Part shown: positions 4,551 to 35,219 of the stretch, piece by piece
Layout of the letters: every line of letters starts with the position of its first letter
Numbering within the stretch: position 1 is the stretch's first letter
IMG/VR virus record: IMGVR_UViG_2737471838_000004
Span: 1 to 55,334 of that record
Reading direction: 5' to 3' (one strand)
Source of the DNA: a virus
Taxonomy: Duplodnaviria; Heunggongvirae; Uroviricota; Caudoviricetes
Length of the DNA stretch: 55,334 nt
The notes under the pieces: generated by a model
Database searches by the model: none
Seen by the model: only the letters and a program-made list of their open reading frames with translations
Told to the model about the DNA's origin: nothing
Position numbers and translations under genes: made by a program

Positions 4551-7500
4551 TGACCAAGAACCAGAACTCCTTGTAACAAGCGCAAGTCCAGCCCTTCTTT
4601 CTGTACCTGTACTGGTGTTGGTGTATTCTTCTGTTATTGTTATGGTTACTTTTTGCGCCGTGATCCCTGTGACGCAATGTGATACCGTAAATCCAAATTG
4701 AGGCGTAGATGCCGCCCTCACGACTGAATATGTTTTACTATTTCCATTAATGTTTATTGTCACTTTTATGGTTGTTGACTGAGAATACTGATAGTAAGTC
4801 AGGTGATAAGGAATCATCACAAAAACGGTTTTAGAAAGCGAACTCGAAGACGAATCTGTATAAGTTTTAGTAACAGAACGCGATGCACTGTCCGACTGGT
4901 TAGGGAATGATGCTTGAGGTATAAAGTTAGTTGACGCGACATCGCCTACAAAACTTGTAGCCTCTAGCGACCCTTTAAATTTACCGCTATTTGCATACAC
5001 CGCCCCCCTTACCGTTACGTTGTTAAGCTCCGCGCTACCGTTTTTATTAATCATCCAGCCAGCCGAACCGGCTTTATAGTTGGTTGACTGTATTTGCTGT
5101 GCAATTTTAGCTGTAGTGATTGCTGCATCTGCAATTTTAGCCGTTCCTATTGATGCGTTTTTAATAAACGCTTCGCGCACATACATTGCACCATTTGTAA
5201 CATAGAAAGGTGTCGTATATGTGCCGTTTGCCGCCGTCATTAGCACAAAACGGTCAACAAGGAAAATGCATTGTGATTGTGTGCTACTTCCCGATCCGGT
5301 CATACCTAACGAAATCCCGGACGCATACTTCATGCCGTTATTGTCAGTAGCGATCTTAATGCTCCACGTTGCCGACATATCTGTTTCAATACCGGCAATT
5401 GCGGTTTTGTTTTCCTCGATTGATACCGATTGCCCGTCGATTGAGGCCGTGATACTTTCGATCTGCGTGGCGGTTGATTCCTTGTAAGATGTAAACGCTT
5501 CGCCCCACTCCGTGATCGATGCTTCGTTTGCTTCCAGTGATGCGCTAATCTCCGCAAACTGTGTAGCGTTGGCCTTTTCGTGGGTAGCAAGTGCCGTTTG
5601 CATTTCGGTAATGGCTGCCGACACATCATCATCGATTTGGGCTTGCAATTGCTCCAGTTTCTGCGCGGTCGCCTCCTTCTCTGTAGCAATAACTGAATCA
5701 ATGCGCTCAATTTCTGCTTTCGTTTCCGCTTTCTGGCTCTTATATTGCGCCGTTAACGATGTGCGGGTTCTGGCGTTAGCTAATGAGTTATTCATAAGCG
5801 CAATGGCTGCGTTTTGCAGGCTGGCGCGGGTCTGCATTAGCTCGTTTTCCTGCTCCGTCAATTCTACGCTGATTTCGTTAATCTGGCTTTCGTGCTCCCC
5901 AATTCCGTCCTCATTGTTTTTTATACGTTCTTCCAGATCGGCGGTTGATTCCTTCAGGTCGGTAATAGTCTGGTTCATTTCTTCCACGTCACCCATTAAA
6001 CCTCCTGTTACTTCGTCCATGGAGTCCTTGATCATGTTCTGGAATTGTTCGCTTTCCATAACTTCATTCAGCACGGCATCCGTGATTTCTTCGAAGTTTT
6101 CGGAAGGTTTACCGCTGGCTTCGATAAAGTCAGATACACCGAAAGCGTTTTTTGTGCGCACGTAAACGTAATACGTGTGCCCCGTTGCCATCCCGCCGAA
6201 GGTCCATTGATACCCGCGCCCGGTGAATTGCGCTGATGTGGTTACTTTGGATGGATCTGTGATCTGATTTTCCCCTGAGTAGTAGAACTCGTATGCTGTA
6301 TCAGTGGTTAGGGTTGTTTTGCTGATCGGGTACACCGTTGCCTGAAAAACACCAGGCACCCAATTAACGCCGACGGGGGCCGCTGGCGCACCAATAACCA
6401 GATCCACAATACTTTCTGCGCCCTTCATGCCAGTGTCATTACGACCGCGAATACCAAGCGTGTAGCTGCCTGCGTCGAGGCCATAAAATTCATAGCGGTA
6501 ATTCGTGGTTTCATAACTTGCCACCACGCGACCGTCTGCATTATATACGCGGATTTCAAAGGTAAGACGATGCGTTGTTGTCTGTGTTTCCCATGTTGCG
6601 CGGCATTGAACCGTTTCAGAACCAGCGTTTAACACTTTCAGATTTTCAATGTTAGGTACGCGGAAGTGATTAAGCGTGTCGTTGTTGATTTCGAAGACTG
6701 CGCCTTCATCAACTACGGCCTGTTTGTTAGGGTCGTGCTGTGCGGCTTCGATAGTGTATACGCTGTTATTTTCTGTTTCCGCTACGCTGGTGATCCTACA
6801 TAAAACGGGTTTTGCTGCTTCAGTCGATACAGCAAAAACAGTGCCATTGCGAATCCATGCCGGGGCCGCAGCAAGGGTAATATTGTTTCCGTTAATTCCG
6901 GTGATCTGGTGTTTTTTAAATTTACCATCGTTATCAAGTAATCTGATGGTGTCACCAGCCGCGATATATTCAGAATCAACCTTATCGACCGTTATCACTT
7001 TGCCATTGTTCGCCACGATACGACCGCCCAAACGAGCACCAGCGCGGTTATTGTCGAGGATCTCGATAATATCCCCAGGGGTGAAGTGAATGGCGTCACG
7101 GGCCATTTTAAACGTAAATTTCGACGGCTCGCGTTTTGCTGTTTCGATCAGCCATTTACCAGCGCGGTAAGCCTGTCCGCGAGAAGTACAGCCGAACGCC
7201 TCCAGCGTGGTTTCGTTGTAGCCGTCGCGGGCGATCAGTTCATCGTCAGAGACATACTCTTTTGACTGTTCCCAACCGTTACCCGGATCAGTCCAGGATA
7301 CAATCACGGCGTTGTAGCACTCAGCGCGGGCAAGGCTCGAACGGGTGAATACACCATCTACGACATTTGCGTTCGTGATAGTTGCAATCGGATCTTGTGG
7401 CGCATCAATCATCACTGTAAGACGTTGCCCATCCCATAACGCAATACCACGGAACATGCCAGCTATATTATCAAGTAAGTCGCGGGCGCTCATTTGCTCT

Positions 7501-10283: not shown

Positions 10284-10988
10284 TTAACCGACCTTGCTTG
10301 ATCCGGGGAAACATGAAATTGGTAACGGATTGGGGCGCGGGAAACGCAAACGGCAACCGCTCAGGCGGTGGCTGCATTTATCCAGTTTTGGATCGCTGGT
10401 CGATTCGTCTTTATCTGTAGCTACAGGGCCGCCACTGTATCCGCAACCGTCGCCCCGGTATTGCCACTGGCAAACGTCAGCGAGGATTGTGCGCCCAGGG
10501 ATAACTGCCTTGTCGGCATCAATTGGCGTTGAAAGTTCATATTGCACCTGGTCGGCTGTTTCTTCGCTCATCGCCTCAACGACGTAAAAAGATACAGCCT
10601 CGATAGATGGATCTGCATCTGGATTGCCATTGGGGAAGTTGACAGCGTCCAGATATTTTACTTCCACCTGGCGGCGCGTAACCTTCATTCCTCGCAGGTC
10701 GTTGAAATCGTTGTTCATCCCGGTGATTAGCCCGCCAATGTTGGCTACTACCATTTGCGGGCGCGAGTAAACGCCTTCGTTTTTCATTTCGAAGCCAGTA
10801 GCCTCGATTGGGTAGCTGTTGTAAGCCAAGCCCTTCCAGATAACCGGGCCGTAATAGCCATTCGTGCCGGAATGGAAGCGGATAACCTCGCCACCCAGGG
10901 GCGTGAGGTCTAATTCAAACAAGTCAATTACCGCTCCGACCCCTGCATCGACGGAATCAATAATCATTTCTGTAGGTATGCTGCGCAT
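10284..10988 (-). CDS. L: minor tail protein L
   Basis: 234 aa; clear similarity to lambda gpL (FLDAVNF.NGN, RGD.CGYSG, DKCS..LSGC). Confidence 0.85.
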   Translation of the reverse strand: MRSIPTEMIIDSVDAGVGAVIDLFELDLTPLGGEVIRFHSGTNGYYGPVIWKGLAYNSYPIEATGFEMKNEGVYSRPQMVVANIGGLITGMNNDFNDLRGMKVTRRQVEVKYLDAVNFPNGNPDADPSIEAVSFYVVEAMSEETADQVQYELSTPIDADKAVIPGRTILADVCQWQYRGDGCGYSGGPVATDKDESTSDPKLDKCSHRLSGCRLRFPRPNPLPISCFPGSSKVG

Positions 10989-11041
10989 TTTATCACCTTG
11001 TCATTTTGTGATCGCCATCACGCTAAATCATACCAAAACGG

Positions 11042-11070
11042 TTGATAGCGCTTTTTACAATATGTATATT
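11042..11070 (+). promoter_or_regulatory. sigma70-like promoter of moron cassette B (TTGATA-17-TATATT), -10 overlapped by inverted repeat ACAATAT-gt-ATATTGT
   Basis: near-consensus -35/-10 with 17-bp spacer in the L/M intergenic region, upstream of plus-strand ORFs. Confidence 0.4.
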
Positions 11071-11116
11071 GTACTCAAAAGGAAGCATGGTTAACAAAAT
11101 GGCGCGGAGGTGTTAT

Positions 11117-11272
11117 ATGGCTGACAAGGTGTGGAGGTTGACGGTGTTCCTGGCTGATGGCAGGGAAATGACTGTAGCTCTGTATAAAGACGAAGGCGAG
11201 GCACTGACTGACGCGCTTTTACTTGCTGAAGATGACCGCGTTTTGGGGTACAGGATAGAACCTGTCAAATGA
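11117..11272 (+). CDS. hypothetical small protein (moron cassette B)
   Basis: ORF 11042..11272 trimmed to the ATG preceded by GGAGG (MADKVWRLTV...); alternative start at 11087. Confidence 0.4.
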   Translation: MADKVWRLTVFLADGREMTVALYKDEGEALTDALLLAEDDRVLGYRIEPVK

Positions 11273-11284
11273 GAGGTTAACAAA

Positions 11285-11638
11285 ATGCAAAAGTATCGTC
11301 TTGATGTCTGGATGGCTGGTAGTGATGATTGGGAAGGTTACGGCTTGCATGACAGTTACGAAATGGCGGTCGAGGAAGGAGAAAAACTCGTTCGATTCTT
11401 CGGTCGCGCAAGAGAATTCAAAATTACTCCAGTACAAATACCGGATAAGGTGGAAGATATGAACCCGAAAGATATTAACTTTAACGTCAATGTTGAATTT
11501 GCTGATTCTATGGATCAATCTTGCCCTGGCGAAATACACGCAAAAGGTTTCCCGGCTGACGATCCTGAAGCAAAACGTGAATACGAAAAAGCGGCAAAAG
11601 ATTTCTGTATCGACAATTTGTCTGCGTTCAATAAATAG
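11285..11638 (+). CDS. hypothetical protein (moron cassette B)
   Basis: 117-aa ORF, acidic, tightly spaced after previous ORF. Confidence 0.5.
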   Translation: MQKYRLDVWMAGSDDWEGYGLHDSYEMAVEEGEKLVRFFGRAREFKITPVQIPDKVEDMNPKDINFNVNVEFADSMDQSCPGEIHAKGFPADDPEAKREYEKAAKDFCIDNLSAFNK

Positions 11639-11647
11639 GGTGGGAGT

Positions 11648-11896
11648 ATGGCGCGGCGTAATCACGGGGATTATGTGTACACGTTGAAACAGGCCGCCCG
11701 CCTTATCGGTTATCATGAACACGAATTTATTGATTTGCTGATTGAGCGCGGGATACTGTACCAGGTCTGTTTAACACTGTACCCGAAAGCGAAATACCTA
11801 CAGGAAAAGTTATTCATCATCATGACGGATGAAAACCAGGTCAACCATTCATTCGTTACTGATAAGGGCGTTAATTATCTGCGTGATAACTTATAG
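11648..11896 (+). CDS. hypothetical protein, possible HTH (moron cassette B)
   Basis: 82-aa ORF; GGGAG RBS; segment YTLKQAARLIGYHEHEFIDLL resembles a helix-turn-helix. Confidence 0.45.
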   Translation: MARRNHGDYVYTLKQAARLIGYHEHEFIDLLIERGILYQVCLTLYPKAKYLQEKLFIIMTDENQVNHSFVTDKGVNYLRDNL

Positions 11897-12052
11897 GTGA
11901 CAGATTATGAAAAATAGAAGTTTTGGCGCTAATAATAATGGGACTGATAGTATTTGGCGTTCATGCTGCCGATTGGGACTGGGCGGCGATAGCCAATAAT
12001 ATGGCGCACGCACACCCAATGAGTTTGCTGTATATTAACTACTAAAAGAAAA

Positions 12053-12080
12053 CCCCGCACGAAGCGGGGTTGTTTTTATA
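12053..12080. terminator. bidirectional rho-independent terminator, near-identical to the one at 4521..4550
   Basis: stem CCCCGC/GCGGGG, loop ACGAA, T-tract; about 41 bp including the preceding AACTACTAA shared with the 4509..4550 site (2 mismatches). Confidence 0.6.
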
Positions 12081-12276
12081 CACCATCAACCAAAAATAAA
12101 ACCTCCTTGCCTTCCCTGGATCTGCATCCTACATACCCATCACCAACATCATGAAGATACCATGTATCGCCATTGTCAGCCTTTACAGTAAGGTCGTTGA
12201 TCTCGTAGTCGTCAAATAATGTAAAAGCGTCAGTTTTGTCCACTACACAAGTCCCGTACATAACAACCACCCCCAA
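12076..12276 (-). CDS. hypothetical small protein downstream of M
   Basis: 66-aa ORF immediately after M on the same strand. Confidence 0.35.
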   Translation of the reverse strand: MGVVVMYGTCVVDKTDAFTLFDDYEINDLTVKADNGDTWYLHDVGDGYVGCRSREGKEVLFLVDGV

Positions 12277-12630
12277 TTAGCCAACAACTTGCTCAAATGT
12301 TGCGTTTAGCGTGTATACAGGCCCGTCCTTTGTCATACTCCAGCTACGGCAAACAAAAAGCCTTTGCACGCCATCCATAGACGGCGACCAGTAAAAAGCC
12401 TCGACAGCGCCGCGCGCCCTCAAGAATGCTTCTGCCTGGATCGCCACGTTCCCACTATCACCGCATCCTGCGCTACTGCCTTTAAAAACCAGGGTGTAGC
12501 TATCAAGCAACGTGTTAATCCCTTTCGCCTGGCGCTGTTCATAACCATCACCAAGTTTAACGACCGACACATTTGGTTCCCTGGTCACGCTGTAGCTTCT
12601 TTGCGGCGTCCATCTGAAAACTTCCGGCAT
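12277..12630 (-). CDS. M: minor tail protein M
   Basis: 117 aa; lambda gpM-like motifs (FRW.P, GDGYEQR, FEQVV); GGGGGAA RBS. Confidence 0.8.
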   Translation of the reverse strand: MPEVFRWTPQRSYSVTREPNVSVVKLGDGYEQRQAKGINTLLDSYTLVFKGSSAGCGDSGNVAIQAEAFLRARGAVEAFYWSPSMDGVQRLFVCRSWSMTKDGPVYTLNATFEQVVG

Positions 12631-13560: not shown

Positions 13561-15907
13561 ATTTGCGGCGCGGTTGCAACATTCCTCCCGGTCGTTGCGA
13601 TTCCCTTGCCATCATTTTCATTGCTACGCGCTCCATCGTCTGCTCAAGTCTGCGGCTATCTTCGTCGCTAAATCCGTTTGTGGTCTGAACTGTGATTTGC
13701 ACAGGCATATTGATGCCGCCACCATTGAAGAGATCGCGGCCAGGAATTACCCTACCATTTTCGCCAGGAATCATATACTGACGCCCGTTGCTCGTCTGGA
13801 ATAGCTCAGGTATTCCGTGTTCCCCTACTCGATACAGGCTACCACCATTAACAGAACCACCATTATAACGCCCGCCACCAAAGATTGACGTTGCCAGCGA
13901 CATGATCGCAGAAAGCGCCGCAGCACCAGCCGCCGCCCAGCTACCACCAGTTGACGCAGCCGTAGCCGCCGCTGCCGGGGCCGCCGCCGCTGCAATCTGG
14001 CCTTGTGCCGCTACCGCGCCTGCCGTGGTACTTGCTTGCGTGGCCTTGCTTTGTGTTTCCATCATTAACTGATCTGCTATCCAGTTAGCGGCAATTTCTG
14101 ATAGTTTGTTGCCAACGGTGTTAAGTATGCTACTTCCCAGGTTGGCAAAAACCTCGCTTAATGATTGAGTACCGTTTAACAGTCCTGTAAGGGCATTGCC
14201 CATGCCACCTTTCAGGCCGCTGGCGCAAGCGCCGATCAGTCCGTTTGTTTCGCTTTGCGCCTGCCATTGCTCCCACTTCAGATCCCGGATCTGTTGTTCG
14301 TATTCCAATTGCGCCTGTCTCTGTTGCGCCTCTGTAGCGCCCAGGTCCAATAGCATTTGCTTTCTTACGGCCCATTCATTTTGCGCCTGTTTGATTGGGT
14401 CAATTTCGCCCTTAAGCTGGTCCATTGGGCTAACTATGTGGTCCCATTTGTCGCGTAGCTCATCAACAGGGATTTGCGCCAATTCGTCCTTCAGTTCCTT
14501 GCCTATACCTTTCTGCGCGGCCTTGTACTCAAGGAGGGTTATTTTTCCCTGGGCAAATGCGGCGTCAATGGCCTTGCCGTTCTCCAGTGCTTTACGCATA
14601 GCGGCGGCGTCTTTGTTGTACTGGTCAGAGACTTTTATACCTTCATCACCAAGCCGATCAGCTTCAGATTTCTTGTCTTTTTTGCCCTTTTTACCTTTTT
14701 TCGGTTTACCAACTGGCTGATCGAATCCCGTGATCTTACCATCGTCAGCCTCACCCTGTTTCTCCATGAACTCATCATAGGCGGCAGTTGCGTTTTTAAT
14801 GTCGTTTGCAAACGTCATGACCTTACCAACTGTAGGGCCAAATTTCTTCTCGTTGTTGCTATTTAGCTCTTCCTTGCGCTTGTCAATGATTTCCTTCATC
14901 CATTTGTAGCCATCCATTAGCGCCTTGATTGGCGTTACCATCCTGATAATCTCTTCCGCCACCTCGCCAGCCTTAACAGCAACATCATCAAACATGTCGA
15001 TAAATTCGCTGCCAGCCGTTTTTAGTGTATTGAAACATGTTGCGGCGAATTTTGCGCCTTTACCTAATCCCTCAACGCCACCAGTGATTAAGTCTATTGC
15101 CGACACAACGCCATCTGATATGCCGAAAAGATCGTCTAGCTGTTCGACAAGTCCCATAACCTCAACTTTAAGCTCGTTGAAGGCCATGCCGGATGTGCGC
15201 GGCAACTGTGCGAACTTCTCGTTTGTTTCCTGCGTGGCGGCCTGGATCGCGTTAAGCATCCTTTCAGCAGTGATCTTGCCGTCCAGCATTTCAGCGCGGA
15301 ACTGACCCATTGACAACCCCATCTGTCGGGCCATTTCCTGTATGATTGTTGGGGTGTTGTCACGGATTGAGTTAAATTCTTCAGCCTGCAACACGCCAGC
15401 ATCAATAGCCTGGCGGAACTGGCGCATGGAGTTTGATAGTTGTTCCGCAGACACGCCGCCCAGGTTGCCGAGTTTTTGCAGCGTGCTAACCAGGTTGAGG
15501 ACCTGGCCTTCCGTAGCGGATGTGTTTTTTAGCGATATAGCAAGACCTTGCCACAGATCGCCAGTATCCTTGAGGCTTTGGCCTGTTTCTTTTGATATTT
15601 CTTTCAGTCTATTGAAAACGCGTTCCGTGGCCTCCGCTTCACCTGTAAGCAGTTTGATTTTTACGCGAAGCATTTTTGCCTGCTCCGCCATGTCAATAAA
15701 CTGGCGAACCGCCTCCGCAGCAAGCAACAGATGAATGACCCTGGATAGTGCTTTGATTGAAGTCTTAAGCGTGTTCACCTGGCGGTCAGCGCGTTTTGCG
15801 CCACGCTCGATACTGTCAAAAGCCTGGTCCGCCTGTCGCTGAGCGACTAGAAGTTGACCAGTTTTTGCATCAACTTCGTAATAAATTGTACCTAAACTGG
15901 TGGACAT
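13559..15907 (-). CDS. tail length tape measure protein
   Basis: 782 aa; long alpha-helical protein with Gly/Ala-rich C-terminal part; positioned between tail chaperone and M. Confidence 0.85.
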   Translation of the reverse strand: MSTSLGTIYYEVDAKTGQLLVAQRQADQAFDSIERGAKRADRQVNTLKTSIKALSRVIHLLLAAEAVRQFIDMAEQAKMLRVKIKLLTGEAEATERVFNRLKEISKETGQSLKDTGDLWQGLAISLKNTSATEGQVLNLVSTLQKLGNLGGVSAEQLSNSMRQFRQAIDAGVLQAEEFNSIRDNTPTIIQEMARQMGLSMGQFRAEMLDGKITAERMLNAIQAATQETNEKFAQLPRTSGMAFNELKVEVMGLVEQLDDLFGISDGVVSAIDLITGGVEGLGKGAKFAATCFNTLKTAGSEFIDMFDDVAVKAGEVAEEIIRMVTPIKALMDGYKWMKEIIDKRKEELNSNNEKKFGPTVGKVMTFANDIKNATAAYDEFMEKQGEADDGKITGFDQPVGKPKKGKKGKKDKKSEADRLGDEGIKVSDQYNKDAAAMRKALENGKAIDAAFAQGKITLLEYKAAQKGIGKELKDELAQIPVDELRDKWDHIVSPMDQLKGEIDPIKQAQNEWAVRKQMLLDLGATEAQQRQAQLEYEQQIRDLKWEQWQAQSETNGLIGACASGLKGGMGNALTGLLNGTQSLSEVFANLGSSILNTVGNKLSEIAANWIADQLMMETQSKATQASTTAGAVAAQGQIAAAAAPAAAATAASTGGSWAAAGAAALSAIMSLATSIFGGGRYNGGSVNGGSLYRVGEHGIPELFQTSNGRQYMIPGENGRVIPGRDLFNGGGINMPVQITVQTTNGFSDEDSRRLEQTMERVAMKMMARESQRPGGMLQPRRK

Positions 15908-24799: not shown

Positions 24800-26284
24800 T
24801 TAAAATCCGCGCAGGCGCTTCGGTAACATGAGGCCCATCGCCTGTGGCTGGCTCAGTTCGGTAATGCCCCATACCATTGCGTCCATACGGTCAGGGGATT
24901 TTTTGGCGGTAGCTGGCACGTATTCCATCATTTGATTTTCCAGCGTGTACAGTTCACCAGTGTGGGCCACCCTTCCTTGTGCATACAGTGCAGATATTGG
25001 TTCGGCGCGGGCGAATTTACCCTTGCTTGCGTGTACCTTAACAATGCGGCCTTTGAATCCTGCATTGCGTAGCGTGGCCTCTGCCATTTCACCGCCCTGG
25101 TTGGTTTCGATAACCATCGCGTCAGCCTCATGAATGTCGTATGCGCTCATTGCTGCTTGCGCCCAGGCATTAGGGGACATGCGGCCTGAGTAGTCACCAT
25201 CAACAGAATACTGAGCATTTTTACCGCCACCGTAAGCGGAACATGCAACGATCCCCGTTTCGTCCGATTCTTCCGATGATGTTGTAGCCGGGTCGATAGC
25301 TATTACCGTGCGGATCTTGTCCTGCGTTATCTGCATCCGGTGCGCTGCGGTTATCATGGCTTCAGTCCACAATGCACCCTCTTCGTCGAATTTACGCGGG
25401 CGCTGCATGTACTGGGCCTCAAATGACCGCCTGTGTGCTTTCAGTCCAGCTTCATGATCGTCATTATGTTTCCTGGGCCACAGCCAGCCATCAGGCAGGT
25501 TGTGAGCAATAGGGATGGCGAACTCGTTTTCAGGGTACAAATCCCAATAGTCAACGCTGTTGTCGATCTTCACTGGCAGGTTCAGGTGATACCACTTTTC
25601 CCCGCTCCCACCGCGTAACAGGTAGCCGGACAAATCATCGTAATGGATGCGCTGCATAATGACGATAACAGGCGTCGTTTGCACTGCCAGACGTGACGCA
25701 AGCGTGTCGTTATAGTTGGTGTTTACCTGCTTTCTCACTACGTCAGAATAAGCGTCAGCAGGTTTCAATGGGTCGTCGATGATTAACGCGCCGTTAAATC
25801 CTGGTTCCATATACCCGGCACGGAACCCAGTTACCTGGCCAAGCGATGAGGTCGCGTACACGCCGCCACCGTATTCTGTCCACCACATAGATTTACTGTT
25901 GGCATCATTGCGGATCTTCATGGGCCACATTGCCTGATATTCAGGCGTGCAGATCATGTTTCTTACAGTCGAGGAATTTAGTAATGCCAGGTTGTTGGAA
26001 TAGGAAACGTGAAGGAATCGTGTGCGGGGATTTATTGCGAGGGACCGCGCCATCATGTTGATAGTTGCGATCATGGTTTTGCCGTACCCTGGAGGGATGT
26101 TAATGATGAGTCGGGTTATCTCACCATTGACAACGCGTTGCAGTGCGTCGCGGATAGCTAAATGATGGCCTGAGATTAACATCTTCGTTCCGTTCGCTTG
26201 CTTGTAAAAGTAGCGATTGAAAAACAGGCCATCGTTTTCACATTTGGACTGAATTACTCGTTCTCTGATTGTCAGCATAATCAC
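24800..26284 (-). CDS. terminase large subunit
   Basis: 494 aa; Walker A-like PPGYGKT, ATPase and nuclease regions typical of TerL. Confidence 0.9.
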   Translation of the reverse strand: MIMLTIRERVIQSKCENDGLFFNRYFYKQANGTKMLISGHHLAIRDALQRVVNGEITRLIINIPPGYGKTMIATINMMARSLAINPRTRFLHVSYSNNLALLNSSTVRNMICTPEYQAMWPMKIRNDANSKSMWWTEYGGGVYATSSLGQVTGFRAGYMEPGFNGALIIDDPLKPADAYSDVVRKQVNTNYNDTLASRLAVQTTPVIVIMQRIHYDDLSGYLLRGGSGEKWYHLNLPVKIDNSVDYWDLYPENEFAIPIAHNLPDGWLWPRKHNDDHEAGLKAHRRSFEAQYMQRPRKFDEEGALWTEAMITAAHRMQITQDKIRTVIAIDPATTSSEESDETGIVACSAYGGGKNAQYSVDGDYSGRMSPNAWAQAAMSAYDIHEADAMVIETNQGGEMAEATLRNAGFKGRIVKVHASKGKFARAEPISALYAQGRVAHTGELYTLENQMMEYVPATAKKSPDRMDAMVWGITELSQPQAMGLMLPKRLRGF

Positions 26285-26766
26285 ACCTCGTCTTCTACTT
26301 CCTGGACGATGCGGGCGATCTCTTCTTTCGTGACTTCCACCTGGACGGGCGCTTCTTCCTTGTTGCCTACGATCTCCTGTGTGACGCGCTCGCCATACTT
26401 ACGCGGTTGCAGTTTTGCTAATAGCCATTTACGAGTTTCAATCATCAAATGGTGTCTGTTCAGTTCTTCCTTTTTGATGTTCTCTGGCGCGTCAGCAAGG
26501 TCGATGATCTCATCAGCTAACACCTCGAAGCCGATCTCCTTCGCGCGCATATACATGTCCGAAAACTCCGGCACATCTCTGAACCACTTGAGGATTGTTG
26601 AACGTGCAGGCATACCAGGCATCTTCGAAATCTTGTTAATACTTTCGCCGTCCGACACAAGCTCGCAGATCTCCAATGCCTTTTCTTCTGAATAGCCATG
26701 TGGACGGCCCACCTTTTTGGCTGCTGGCTTTTTATCGTCAGCATTTGCCTTTTTAGTGCGGGCCAT
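26281..26766 (-). CDS. terminase small subunit
   Basis: 161 aa; N-terminal basic region plus HTH (ICELVSDGESINKISK), overlaps TerL start. Confidence 0.8.
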   Translation of the reverse strand: MARTKKANADDKKPAAKKVGRPHGYSEEKALEICELVSDGESINKISKMPGMPARSTILKWFRDVPEFSDMYMRAKEIGFEVLADEIIDLADAPENIKKEELNRHHLMIETRKWLLAKLQPRKYGERVTQEIVGNKEEAPVQVEVTKEEIARIVQEVEDEV

Positions 26767-26776
26767 ATTTCACCTC

Positions 26777-26860
26777 TCAATATTTATTGATGATATATAC
26801 GCAAGCAACAAAACTTGCACAGTATGTTAATACTTCCAACCAGTCGAATAGCTCTTTCAT
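26777..26860 (-). CDS. mini-protein, single hydrophobic helix (27 aa, MKELFDWLEVLTYCASFVACVYIINKY)
   Basis: hand-translated; ATGA overlap with preceding mini-gene; directly upstream of terS. Confidence 0.35.
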   Translation of the reverse strand: MKELFDWLEVLTYCASFVACVYIINKY

Positions 26861-27000
26861 TGTTTACCCTTGAATCTCTGTTTTGATTCTCTGTAAATAA
26901 GCCCGGTAATCATTACGATCACGTATACGCATAACATTAACGCGATAATAAGCACGCCAGAGCAAACTAAGAACATTAACAGATCGATAAACTCAAACAT
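26857..27000 (-). CDS. mini-protein, single hydrophobic helix (47 aa, MFEFIDLLMFLVCSGVLIIALMLCVYVIVMITGLIYRESKQRFKGKQ)
   Basis: hand-translated; AAGAGG RBS. Confidence 0.4.
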   Translation of the reverse strand: MFEFIDLLMFLVCSGVLIIALMLCVYVIVMITGLIYRESKQRFKGKQ

Positions 27001-27010
27001 GATTGCCTCT

Positions 27011-27082
27011 TTACATAATCGTAAACGCCCAGGTAATAAGGACGATAGCTAAAACCATGTATATAAAATCTGACTCTCTCAT
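27011..27082 (-). CDS. mini-protein, single hydrophobic helix (23 aa, MRESDFIYMVLAIVLITWAFTIM)
   Basis: hand-translated; AAGGTGG RBS. Confidence 0.35.
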   Translation of the reverse strand: MRESDFIYMVLAIVLITWAFTIM

Positions 27083-27097
27083 ATTGTTCCACCTTGT

Positions 27098-27142
27098 TTA
27101 CGCGAAGAAAACAATAACAACTAACAGCGTGCATATAGCCAT
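27098..27142 (-). CDS. possible micro-ORF (14 aa, MAICTLLVVIVFFA)
   Basis: hand-translated; weak RBS; may be non-coding spacer. Confidence 0.15.
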   Translation of the reverse strand: MAICTLLVVIVFFA

Positions 27143-27158
27143 GATTAAGAAATCACCG

Positions 27159-27233
27159 TCAGACATTTATAATAAACCCCACAATAACAACCGCCGCGAT
27201 ACATACGAATAATACAGCTTCGATAGTTTCCAT
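27159..27233 (-). CDS. mini-protein, single hydrophobic helix (24 aa, METIEAVLFVCIAAVVIVGFIINV)
   Basis: hand-translated; AGGTGA RBS. Confidence 0.35.
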   Translation of the reverse strand: METIEAVLFVCIAAVVIVGFIINV

Positions 27234-27241
27234 ATATTCAC

Positions 27242-27310
27242 CTATTGAGTCAGCGCGGTCATGGTAAGAACAATCGCAACGATCAGGAAAAAGAAATCAA
27301 GCCATTTCAT
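27242..27310 (-). CDS. mini-protein, single hydrophobic helix (22 aa, MKWLDFFFLIVAIVLTMTALTQ)
   Basis: hand-translated; GGGAG RBS; ATGA overlap with upstream mini-gene. Confidence 0.35.
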   Translation of the reverse strand: MKWLDFFFLIVAIVLTMTALTQ

Positions 27311-27387
27311 TTTTTAAACTCCCGGTATACGTCCACGGCAATAACTACAACTACAGCCACCAGCAATAGCATTTCATATGCGTTCAT
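27307..27387 (-). CDS. mini-protein, single hydrophobic helix (26 aa, MNAYEMLLLVAVVVVIAVDVYREFKK)
   Basis: C-terminal part of ORF-track entry 27307..27492; AGGTGA RBS before internal ATG. Confidence 0.4.
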   Translation of the reverse strand: MNAYEMLLLVAVVVVIAVDVYREFKK

Positions 27388-27395
27388 GCTTTCAC

Positions 27396-27470
27396 CTATA
27401 CAACGTTCTTCCACCAGAAATAGATAATGACGGCGACCAACGACCACCAGATGAGATCGTAAATATTCAT
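27396..27470 (-). CDS. mini-protein, single hydrophobic helix (24 aa, MNIYDLIWWSLVAVIIYFWWKNVV)
   Basis: hand-translated; GAAGG RBS. Confidence 0.35.
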   Translation of the reverse strand: MNIYDLIWWSLVAVIIYFWWKNVV

Positions 27471-27481
27471 GGTGAATACCT

Positions 27482-27568
27482 TCAGCTTTCAATGAATATC
27501 ATGATCGCCAGCCATACAGCGACGCAGGCAGAAAGGATAATGAGCGGGTCAATCATATTGTCACCCAT
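27482..27568 (-). CDS. mini-protein, single hydrophobic helix (28 aa, MGDNMIDPLIILSACVAVWLAIMIFIES)
   Basis: hand-translated; abuts previous mini-gene. Confidence 0.35.
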   Translation of the reverse strand: MGDNMIDPLIILSACVAVWLAIMIFIES

Positions 27569-27664
27569 CTAATATTTGCTCTTTACGGTTATCAGCACGG
27601 CAATAACAAAGCCAACCAGAAATACAGATATACCCATCAATCCGGCAATGGTGCTCTCGTCCAT
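27569..27664 (-). CDS. mini-protein, single hydrophobic helix (31 aa, MDESTIAGLMGISVFLVGFVIAVLITVKSKY)
   Basis: hand-translated; GGGGGTGA RBS; start 2 nt after stop of the HExxH gene. Confidence 0.4.
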   Translation of the reverse strand: MDESTIAGLMGISVFLVGFVIAVLITVKSKY

Positions 27665-27666
27665 AA

Positions 27667-28209
27667 TCACCCCCGCTTAAAGCTCATAACACGCGGTACA
27701 AGCGCTTCTTTTGCTTTAGCCTTGCGTTTCCCTTTCTTCGCTGTTTTTTCTTCTTCCTTCGGCTGTTCTGCCTGTTCTAATGCCTGCTCAACGACTTCAG
27801 CCGCCTGCATTGCCGCTACCTGTGCTTCGTTTGATTCTGCCAGGATCGGGAAGAATGCATCAAAGATGCGGCCCACCATGTAAGCGTAAGTCTCATTCGC
27901 CGGATGAGATGGATCAGTGGTAGCCACGACGCCTACATCGCTTAAAACGTGAAATGTAGTGTGCGCCGCTTCATGGACCAGTGTTCCTAACTCATTGTCG
28001 AATACTGCGATCACGTAGAAGTTACCGCCTTTCTCGCCAGTGCAAGTAAGCGTCAATCCTCCTGCCAGTTCGAAATCAGGTTCGATCGGAATTCCTGCCT
28101 TTTCGCAAAATTCATAAAACATCTCGCGGGTCGGGCAAAAGAAAACGGTTGTATGCTCAAAGAGCGGTACTTTGAATTGAGGCAATTTAATGCCTTTAGC
28201 CTTAGCCAT
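27667..28209 (-). CDS. HExxH-motif protein (putative zinc metallopeptidase-like) with Lys-rich C-terminal tail
   Basis: 180-aa ORF with AGGAGA RBS; motif LVHEAAHTTFH; C-terminus KEEEKTAKKGKRKAKAKE. Confidence 0.5.
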   Translation of the reverse strand: MAKAKGIKLPQFKVPLFEHTTVFFCPTREMFYEFCEKAGIPIEPDFELAGGLTLTCTGEKGGNFYVIAVFDNELGTLVHEAAHTTFHVLSDVGVVATTDPSHPANETYAYMVGRIFDAFFPILAESNEAQVAAMQAAEVVEQALEQAEQPKEEEKTAKKGKRKAKAKEALVPRVMSFKRG

Positions 28210-28487
28210 CAGAATAATCTCCTATTCTGAAAAATATAACCCCCGCAAAACTCGACACCGCAGGGAGTGAAAACAGCTATAAAACACTGAAAACGGCGCT
28301 TCATCAGTACCGTTTCCAGAATTTTATAAAATTGGTGAATGGCGCTTTCTTCTACCCAGGTAGCGCCATACCTGTTAATGAGGTTGTTTACCCGGTATTA
28401 CGTGTTTTTGAATTTCCGCCGTCGCTCGCGGGAAGGATTGGCCCGGTTATGGCTGGCTGACAGAAACGGCGACACGTCAACGCGCTG

Positions 28488-28976
28488 TTATTCTTTGCGT
28501 AAGCACTGCGTTTTGATGTATCCCTGAAGCGCGGTTATCTTCGCATCCTTCTCTTTCAGTTGTTCTCTGAGGGATAGATAAGCCGATTCAGCGTCGGGAG
28601 TGAGTCTACAGGCGGCTCCATCAATGGCGCTGGCGGATCCGGTGGAGTCGGACACTCGCACAGGTGTTGCGTTGACGCGCAACCGGATAGAACCGTTATC
28701 AATGCCAGTGCGCAGATCGGCAATGTCAGATCTGATAGCTTTAATTTCATCGTGATACCTCTTATCAAGTTTTGACAGTTCGGCGTTTAGCTCCTTCATC
28801 TGCTGAATAGTGTTACTTGCTGTTTTCAGTGCGCCTTGCGTGGTCGTTAATTCTTCCTGTAACCTTGTCGCCTCACTCTGGTAATAGCATGTTACGGCGG
28901 TAAGGCTGGCAATGATGCAAACAACAGCGGCGATGATTAACGCCTTCACCTTGTCCACGTTTCCCCCCATTCGCAA
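28488..28976 (-). CDS. Rz: i-spanin (Rz-like)
   Basis: 162 aa; N-terminal TM helix, coiled-coil periplasmic domain; embedded +1-frame lipoprotein ORF. Confidence 0.8.
28556..28750 (-). CDS. Rz1: o-spanin (Rz1-like lipoprotein) embedded in Rz
   Basis: ORF 28556..28768 trimmed to MKLKLSDL; lipobox LSGC, Pro-rich ([14 protein letters not shown]); entirely within Rz in another frame. Confidence 0.7.
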   Translation of the reverse strand: MKLKLSDLTLPICALALITVLSGCASTQHLCECPTPPDPPAPLMEPPVDSLPTLNRLIYPSENN

Positions 28977-29438: not shown

Positions 29439-29639
29439 TTACTTATTCCCCATTCGTGCGTCGTGTTCCTCTTGCGCCCGCTTATTCTCCTGTGATTTGA
29501 AGTAATAATTAACGGCAAATGTGCCTATGGTTGATAAGATACCCACAAAGACGGCAATGTCATTGATGGTTATCGCGCCGAAAAAAGCAGTTACGGCCCC
29601 GGTCACATACGCACACGCCTCCCGTATTCTGTCGAACAT
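29439..29639 (-). CDS. holin
   Basis: 66 aa; two hydrophobic helices and charged C-terminus; GGAGG RBS; first gene of lysis cassette. Confidence 0.7.
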
Positions 29640-34319: not shown

Positions 34320-34500
34320 GCTTGTAAATTTTGACAGGCTTAATAGGGATGGCAGGCAATTCGCCTTCGTTTAACGCGCTTGCCATGCCCAATATTAAAC
34401 GCGCTTCCGCACCAGTTACTTTCTTACACCATGCACCGCCTGTTTTATCTTCGAACAAGATAACGGCAAATTGATCGTTTATTTCCAGCTTATCCATCAC
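34297..34500 (-). CDS. hypothetical protein
   Basis: 67-aa ORF, ATGA overlap with the Q-like gene stop. Confidence 0.4.
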   Translation of the reverse strand: MMDKLEINDQFAVILFEDKTGGAWCKKVTGAEARLILGMASALNEGELPAIPIKPVKIYKRGDDDEA

Positions 34501-35219
34501 TCACCCCGCGTCACTCGTTTAATTTCGTTATCCGCCCGCGCCTCTTCTTTGAACAATTCAGCAATGGCGTCTTCATAGAAAGCGCGGTATTTCTTCCACC
34601 ACGTTGATCGGCTTACCGGGAAAACAAGCTGATTAACCTCCTGCCGGACAAGATCTACAGGGAAACGCGAGTACCCGCGCCCGCCGCAGTGCTGGCACGT
34701 TTTGAAAACTGGCATTTCCGCCGCTTCACTGGCTGCTTTATCCGGTACTTCGCCACGTCCCTTGCATTGTTTACAATGATTGCGAACTGTCCCATGCCCC
34801 TTGCATTTTTTGCAAAGGTGTTTTTCCCCGTATTCGTCAAACGTAAATTTATATCCGCCGCACTCCATACAAGTTTTTTCCGTCGCGGCACTCTGGCAAT
34901 AATCACGAAACGCGAAAACGGCAACAAGAATAATGAGATCATTGCGTTGTGCCTCGTCCAGTTCCATAACGTATTTATAGTCTTTTGCCATAGCTCTTAA
35001 ACGCTCTGTAAGCAAAACTACGGCCTTATGTTTTTCGGCTTGTGATAGTTCCATCTTCCCTAAAAAAGCGCTATAACCAAGCTCTACGCGCGATTGCGCC
35101 ATACCCGCAGCGGTTAGCGCATCCGTTGTATTAAGCACATCCGGGGACGTGCCCCGGCTTTCGTCTGATAATCGCGGTGATTTGGGAAAGTGGAATTTTA
35201 GAATTGATTCTAAATTCAT
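34497..35219 (-). CDS. Q: putative late-gene antiterminator Q (zinc-finger type)
   Basis: 240 aa; Cys cluster CMECGG...CKKCKGHG...CKQCKGRG...CQHCGGRG; located downstream of rusA/ninG as in lambdoid phages. Confidence 0.5.
   Translation of the reverse strand: MNLESILKFHFPKSPRLSDESRGTSPDVLNTTDALTAAGMAQSRVELGYSAFLGKMELSQAEKHKAVVLLTERLRAMAKDYKYVMELDEAQRNDLIILVAVFAFRDYCQSAATEKTCMECGGYKFTFDEYGEKHLCKKCKGHGTVRNHCKQCKGRGEVPDKAASEAAEMPVFKTCQHCGGRGYSRFPVDLVRQEVNQLVFPVSRSTWWKKYRAFYEDAIAELFKEEARADNEIKRVTRGE

Follow-up and report, generated by a model that had tools for sequence, protein, structure and literature searches.

What might a protein with the HExxH signature of metalloproteases be doing in a phage genome whose lysis and packaging genes lie on either side of it? 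The question is posed by an ORF in a 55,334-nt stretch of viral DNA (IMG/VR record IMGVR_UViG_2737471838_000004), hereafter the window, which represents an mEp021-like temperate Escherichia coli phage of the 'mEpimmI' group, a group described in PMC11893012. An initial annotation had suggested that the product could be a repressor-cleaving protease, a host-targeting protease or an accessory lysis factor, and had pointed to the features that make the ORF conspicuous: a length of 180 aa, a strong ribosome-binding site, the motif LVHEAAHTTFH, a Lys-rich C-terminus and an array of mini-genes directly downstream. All of these are indeed present. The ORF lies on the minus strand, the motif corresponds to H79-E80-A-A-H83, the last 25 residues (TAKKGKRKAKAKEALVPRVMSFKRG) comprise 7 K, 3 R and 1 E, and the ATG of the first tiny ORF is found 2 nt past the TGA stop. 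Along the minus strand the order is Q-like antiterminator gene, small genes, holin, endolysin, Rz/Rz1, a 278-bp spacer, the ORF, the tiny ORFs, small terminase, large terminase and portal, and no tRNA gene or Rfam match was found in the whole window. The relevant features, in the direction of transcription, are as follows.

34500-35219, minus strand: Q-like antiterminator gene, on the same strand as the ORF
29439-29639, minus strand: holin gene, followed by the endolysin gene
28488-28976, minus strand: Rz gene, with Rz1 embedded at 28556-28768
28320-28367, 28279-28316 and 28230-28269, minus strand: three terminator-like hairpins, each with a U-run
28219-28223, minus strand: ribosome-binding site AGGAG, 9 nt 5' of the ATG
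27667-28209, minus strand: the zincin-like ORF as given by the ORF listing, 180 aa plus TGA stop, ATG start
27835-28209, minus strand: putative catalytic core, aa 1-125, the portion common to the stand-alone homologs of about 120 aa
27961-27975, minus strand: H79-E80-A-A-H83, inside predicted helix 74-91, invariant in 114 of 114 homologs
27880-27897, minus strand: N105-E106-T-Y-A-Y110, candidate start of the 'glutamate helix'
27736-27834, minus strand: predicted acidic helical spacer, aa 126-158, E/A/Q-rich with 8 E in 33 residues
27670-27735, minus strand: basic tail, aa 159-180 (KGKRKAKAKEALVPRVMSFKRG), of low model confidence
26281-26766, minus strand: small terminase gene, after the array of tiny ORFs

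The ORF is a real gene under purifying selection. DNA matches and the annotation of relatives identify it as the ortholog of mEp021_49 and of MagusPhagus CDS0060; the 3 kb around it are 91-93% identical in phages MagusPhagus, mEp554, mEp010, mEp044, mEp013, mEp021 and mEp515, and pairwise dN/dS among close orthologs amounts to 0.04-0.10 for core residues 1-125 and to 0.04-0.12 for the tail. Some 120 proteins, from near-identical down to 62% identical, occur in E. coli prophages and gut metagenomes, and the gene itself is carried by 26 of 5,426 complete E. coli genomes, always under the label 'hypothetical protein'.

Is the HExxH motif then anything other than a chance run of residues? An HMMER scan of 1.84 billion cluster representatives with residues 1-132 as the query returned 154 relatives at E<=1e-3, nearly all of them stand-alone proteins 110-140 aa long. 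Across an alignment of 114 of these, whose mean column identity is 17%, the only invariant columns are G51, H79, E80, H83 and E106, the last of which (114/114) is situated 23 residues beyond H83; T76 and Y110 are conserved in more than 90% of the homologs (Y110 in 109 of 114), the third position after E106 is occupied by C, A or T in 111 of 114, and H87 is not conserved. Given that the window's ORFs of 100 aa or more, taken in all six frames (22,376 aa), contain HExxH exactly once, and that the motif is invariant in all 114 homologs, it is to be seen as a conserved functional site and not as a coincidence. Repeating the search with the 114-sequence alignment brought little that was new, since near-identical E. 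coli proteins filled most of the list. The core of about 120 aa is a family in its own right: many proteobacterial phages and prophages encode it as a stand-alone protein, and it corresponds to phrog_1365 (E=4.2e-30; aa 1-131 aligned with profile positions 3-124 out of 127), labelled 'unknown function' in PHROGs. Gluzincins are defined by an HExxH helix and a Glu on the next helix within the motif (E,H)xx(A,F,T,S,G) (PMC7213743), and this is the arrangement found here: HExxH on a predicted helix, the Glu on the following one, and a small residue at E+3.

The predicted order of secondary-structure elements agrees with this assignment. An AF2 model computed from the 114-sequence alignment reached a pLDDT of 90.4 (prediction from the single sequence, at pLDDT 47, was unusable) and comprises strands at 11-13, 21-25, 51-57 and 63-69 and helices at 28-38, 44-48 (short), 74-91 and 104-148. 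Helix 74-91 carries HExxH and helix 104-148 has N105-E106 at its start, such that the putative metal site is laid out on consecutive helices after a beta-alpha-beta-beta unit; the acidic spacer is modelled as a continuation of helix 104-148, and residues 150-180 are of low confidence. Support from structural superposition is weak: a Foldseek search of the model against the PDB gave no match at E<0.001. The structure search of BFVD, by comparison, gave 27 significant matches, all of them small and mostly unnamed phage proteins, the few named ones being called 'SprT-like' or 'metalloprotease'. At the level of profiles, 13 of the 15 matches of the family to PDB sequences are HExxH metalloproteases (zincins) with E of 0.015-1.2, among them thermolysin, which was aligned across its HExxH-to-E166 region. 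Mainly on account of the invariant catalytic set and the predicted topology, the ORF product is probably a zincin-type metallohydrolase, and the term 'zincin-like' used in the initial annotation is supported at the level of sequence and secondary structure, namely by the invariant HExxH...E, by its placement on consecutive helices and by the weak profile matches to named families, every one of which is to a zincin.

How would such a site work? H79 and H83 on one helix, together with E106 on the next, would hold the catalytic metal ion, E80 would serve as the general base that activates water, and Y110, a candidate transition-state Tyr, may stabilise the intermediate. A zincin-like fold could also have been adopted for a non-proteolytic use, either as a non-peptide hydrolase or as a metal site with a purely structural or regulatory role; non-peptide substrates are used by some HExxH families, and the domain is very small (about 120 aa) and has no convincing match to solved peptidases. 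Yet a structural site could do without E80, which is invariant like the rest of the full catalytic set, and wherever a named family was weakly matched it was one of peptidases. A non-proteolytic use is improbable. The balance leans instead towards an accessory zincin protease.

When in the infectious cycle would this protease be made? Rz and the ORF had been described as separated by a 280-bp non-coding region; the gap (28210-28487) measures 278 bp and is effectively non-coding, but it is not featureless, for it contains the three conserved terminator-like hairpins, the middle one of which (28279-28316) is the annotated TERM_6 of mEp021. Among relatives this spacer is 86-100% identical, including those in which identity of the zincin core drops to 50-70%, and its folding is stronger than that of shuffled sequence (z=-3.2); the hairpin stems are kept, one of them through a compensatory GGCAC/GUGCC change in L013, the locus of a divergent homolog, and one loop is variable. 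The spacer is also more conserved than the genes surrounding it. MagusPhagus has two tiny CDS annotated in the spacer, of which the 31-aa one (window 28209-28304) is probably not coding, because its ATG is lost in L013 and in a further related locus, L014. No sigma-70-like promoter was found on the same strand of the spacer. This, the terminator-like hairpins, and the need of the terminase and head genes for the same transcript suggest that the ORF, about 6 kb downstream of Q, is a late gene read by Q-modified, terminator-resistant RNA polymerase. The product is most likely a small cytoplasmic metal-dependent endopeptidase made late, from a Q-antiterminated operon.

Two late functions were considered and rejected. 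A prohead protease is excluded by the position of the gene outside the portal-to-capsid block, by the fact that P22, to our knowledge, assembles without a head protease, and by the dispensability of the P22 region (immI) that contains the homolog hkcC. A virion or ejection protein would be expected among the structural proteins, and mEp021_49 is absent from the virion proteins identified by MS and annotated in the GenBank record (PMC11893012).

What do the relatives reveal about the company that this gene keeps? Homologs were found by tblastn in 83 of 50,697 phage records. Those of the Orf-129 type (ST64T Orf-129, ST104 ORF47, epsilon34 gp70, g341c gp66 and the protein of phage L) are about 45% identical over the core, ST64T Orf-129 being matched at E of about 1e-24; in ST64T its neighbours are a DUF2560 gene and Orf-134, with lysis gene 15 on one side of this group and terminase gene 3 on the other. 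Those of the HkcC type, i.e. the paralog of P22 and HK620 (E=1e-11 for HK620 hkcC), are about 35% identical over the core and reside in the ant/immI moron in late-operon orientation; hkcC has been called a gene of unknown function (PMC2629481). Both paralogs are present in several P22-like genomes. In the T7-like Ralstonia phage RSB3, a 109-aa member directly follows endolysin and Rz, and prophages of Yersinia aldovae and Citrobacter have the order Rz, small gene, zincin, small terminase, which, as in ST64T, places the homolog 1-2 genes past Rz. In two Ralstonia-type prophages the gene comes after ParB-like, AAA and thioredoxin genes, and the large terminase is found four genes further downstream; a Rodentibacter prophage has it near Bro/Rha/ParE genes, and a Burkholderia element after a primase-helicase gene. 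At the remaining loci its surroundings are early or middle genes, or else a structural region of the crAss-like type. A search of viral contigs with homolog P0122 as the query retrieved no related loci. Because these contexts differ among lineages, the phrog_1365 gene is a mobile accessory gene that is not tied to lysis genes, with the slot between Rz and terminase preferred in lambdoid-style phages. The claim that such a protein is not part of the canonical lysis or packaging modules was right, yet the gene is no peculiarity of this phage: homologs share this very slot in ST64T-like phages and in the Citrobacter and Yersinia prophages.

Some further observations concern the annotation of these loci. 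The P22 RefSeq record (NC_002371.2) has no CDS for the hkcC ORF (L004 2501-2866, equal to 13861-14226 of the record), which shares sequence with the annotated sieA promoter and directly adjoins the mnt terminator; the ORF is annotated in HK620 and UAB_Phi20. ST64T Orf-134 (L003 2890-3294), the gene after the zincin homolog, matches a 'head decoration protein' PHROG at E=9e-59, and its C-terminal 40 residues match many tail-fibre PHROGs. In L013, the Mu_F-like head morphogenesis protein encoded at 10491-12398 has 635 aa and an Intein_splicing Pfam match, its counterpart in L014 having 313 aa.

Could the protease nevertheless serve lysis, acting together with holin, endolysin or spanin, or on small hydrophobic peptides, and so tune its timing? 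The gene directly follows Rz in mEp021-like phages and RSB3 and is 1-2 genes removed from it in ST64T, Yersinia and Citrobacter; moreover, it appears translationally coupled to the first of the tiny ORFs. Ten of these are arranged head to tail at 26777-27664 on the minus strand, each encoding 22-47 aa that begin with Met and 3-6 polar or acidic residues and continue with one hydrophobic stretch of 16-20 residues (e.g. MDESTIAGLMGISVFLVGFVIAVLITVKSKY and METIEAVLFVCIAAVVIVGFIINV); TRF detected no DNA tandem repeat in this region, and none of the tiny ORFs matched PHROGs better than E=0.01. The zincin itself, however, has no signal peptide or TM segment by sequence reading, three terminator-like hairpins intervene between its gene and the lysis cassette, and many homologs (hkcC of P22 and HK620, and those of Burkholderia, Rodentibacter, crAss-like and other elements) are located away from lysis genes. 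Nor is the array a constant companion: it accompanies the zincin in mEp021-like phages, but it is absent next to all homologs outside this group, and its copy number varies (mEp021, L013 and L014 lack two blocks) while the zincin stays. An accessory lysis factor is therefore decidedly improbable. It is an equally long shot that the zincin and the array form one module, in which a cytoplasmic, tail-anchored protease would process or control membrane-active mini-peptides; if so, these peptides may affect lysis timing, superinfection exclusion or host defence.

The late position of the gene also bears on the idea that the product is an antirepressor protease of the ImmA/IrrE type, which would cleave a prophage repressor or another transcription factor. 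The idea draws on the location of the P22/HK620 paralog in the immI/ant moron (PMC2629481) and on homolog P0118, which weakly matches Peptidase_M78 (PF06114; E=0.099). That family, however, is matched neither by the query nor by the family at large, the window has no HTH gene adjacent to the ORF, and the related loci have no consistent HTH partner. At some 6 kb past Q in the late operon, the gene would be expressed only after the lysis decision, and the mEpimmI phages are mostly not UV-inducible (PMC11893012). A repressor-cleaving protease, although among the roles first suggested, is hence barely credible.

What, then, is the accessory protease likely to cut? We would propose that it is a dispensable enzyme that cleaves a host protein late in infection, most likely in the service of counter-defence or take-over, and a host-targeting protease is our best guess among the three roles of the initial annotation. 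Counter-defence, as the more specific assignment, is put forward only tentatively. A modest hint at it, by guilt by association, comes from a Ralstonia pickettii prophage, where a Tad2-like Thoeris anti-defence gene (L028 4739-4999; PF11195, E=1e-25) is immediately upstream of the zincin gene. The genes in the same position in the Yersinia and Citrobacter prophages (L029 4524-4793; L030 4702-4989) correspond to the N-terminal half of phrog_872, whose C-terminal half is a Tad2-like domain; an anti-defence neighbourhood is thus seen directly in one lineage only. Late expression, on the other hand, is unusual for functions of the anti-restriction type and counts against counter-defence. PADLOC models showed no match at E<=1 to the query or to three distant homologs. 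In a milder form of the module idea, the family may represent a new class of late counter-defence proteases that travel with Tad2-like genes. A survey of the literature on hkcC and on phage SprT-like or zincin counter-defence found no functional data for the phrog_1365 family, and the gene is not mentioned in the mEpimmI paper or its supplements (PMC11893012).

A further part of the protein is the C-terminal extension. The acidic spacer and the Lys/Arg-rich tail, with a net charge of about +9 over 25 residues, could serve to anchor the enzyme on some polyanion (DNA, RNA or a membrane) or on a partner protein. The extension is limited to the mEp021-like clade, i.e. the query, its E. coli relatives, P0118 and P0121, and within it the acidic spacer varies in length, mEp021 having 14 extra residues. 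Most phrog_1365 members in the 114-sequence alignment have neither the acidic spacer nor the basic tail; a mechanism based on the tail therefore cannot be general, and by this comparison the basic tail is a lineage-specific add-on. Variant P0113 (108 member sequences) diverges from about residue 126 and has a different tail, with an HNH endonuclease gene following directly; we infer that an HNH insertion remodelled the 3' end of this variant. In L014 an HNH gene (6563-7000) directly follows the zincin gene, where the C-terminal tail is replaced, and it is the second one of that locus, for HNH endonuclease genes are also inserted between endolysin and Rz in L013 (4752-5273) and L014 (4739-5263). 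Neither HNH insertion is present in the window. In the divergent homolog of L013, the last 25 residues are almost identical to those of the query. Protein-level constraint was considered as the cause and rejected, since the flanking DNA is equally conserved, and the likeness looks for the same reason like the mark of a mosaic recombination boundary.

Does the protein nonetheless belong to one of the named families of small zincins? The query itself matched nothing in Pfam (no match at E<=10), NCBIfam or PDB sequences. The Pfam family weakly matched by most members is SprT-like (26 of 114, best E=0.009, below the gathering score), the next commonest weak matches among the 114 being to other putative metallopeptidase families. 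It would accordingly be attractive to regard the protein as a DNA-tethered protease like SprT, Wss1 or Spartan, whose basic tail binds phage DNA and which clears covalently or tightly bound proteins from concatemers shortly before packaging. In keeping with this, named BFVD neighbours are called SprT-like, hhalign aligns the family collinearly with E. coli SprT over aa 13-96 (P=0.007), the tail is strongly basic, as described above, and the gene lies just upstream of terminase genes in several lineages. But the third metal ligand of Spartan is a His (PMC7213743), a place taken in this family by the invariant E106, while H87 varies; a zinc-ribbon or other Zn-binding DNA subdomain is missing, Zn_ribbon_SprT being present in E. 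coli SprT and absent from the ORF product; most family members lack the basic tail; and all the SprT-like matches fall far below the Pfam gathering score. A packaging-related protease of this kind is thus unlikely.

The other candidate is ArdC. Aligned by hhalign with R388 ArdC (sequence from NC_028464), the family shows a local likeness around '...F...G..TLxHExxH' (aa 56-85, P=0.0015), and with a profile of the ArdC protease domain, built from nine sequences among plasmid matches, P becomes 2.7e-4 at a probability of 42%; the Glu helices remain unaligned, the EEL.AE helix of the ArdC profile not being superimposed on the NExxxY of the family. A 62%-identical homolog goes under the name 'PolyVal Metallopeptidase' in one database source. 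The corresponding Pfam model, MPTase-PolyVal (PF18818), is not matched by the query and is not among the 25 Pfam families matched by most members, whereas ArdC itself matches it at 1e-48.

What is the significance of a small zincin in this position? A zincin on a mobile element is of a known kind, and the phrog_1365 family had already been catalogued, although without a Pfam model of its own. Every annotation calls it 'hypothetical', and yet it has a complete and invariant metalloprotease active-site signature. Its homologs occur in the well-studied model phages P22, HK620, ST64T, L and epsilon34, in which clean genetics are easy, so that its function is directly testable. If the protein does prove to be a protease acting on a host protein, it would be the second example, after ArdC, of a minimal gluzincin used by a mobile element against its host, and the accessory slot that recurs between lysis and packaging genes would gain a function. 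Should loss of the gene be without phenotype, it would count as a further accessory gene of phages.

How does the ORF product compare with the proteins it resembles? Its phrog_1365 relatives, such as ST64T Orf-129, ST104 ORF47, epsilon34 gp70 and HkcC of P22 and HK620, are true homologs that share the invariant HExxH...E; the Orf-129 and HkcC proteins, however, consist of the core alone (about 120-130 aa), whereas the ORF product also has the acidic helix and basic tail. In minigluzincins, the elements follow one another as strand, backing helix, two strands, active-site helix and glutamate helix, and both this order and the size class are the same as those predicted for the ORF product. Two of them, proabylysin and projannalysin, are presented as soluble minimal gluzincins of about 105-110 aa (Lopez-Pelegrin 2013, as cited in PMC4559962). 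Proteins of the SprT-like/Spartan/Wss1 type (PF10263) also have a minimal zincin core of similar size, but they combine a third His with a Zn-ribbon or Zn-binding subdomain, where the ORF product has an invariant Glu and no Zn-ribbon. The C-terminal domain of ArdC (PF18818) is, like the ORF product, a small gluzincin with HExxH and a Glu on the next helix, and ArdC offers a precedent for a gluzincin of a mobile element that acts against host defence (PMC7213743); PolyVal proteins, however, have their own Pfam model and an HWTGH...EEL.AE signature, both of which are missing from the ORF product. Since the ORF product thus lacks the defining features of the SprT-like and the PolyVal families alike, phrog_1365 is, judged by its sequences, most aptly seen as a small zincin family of its own.
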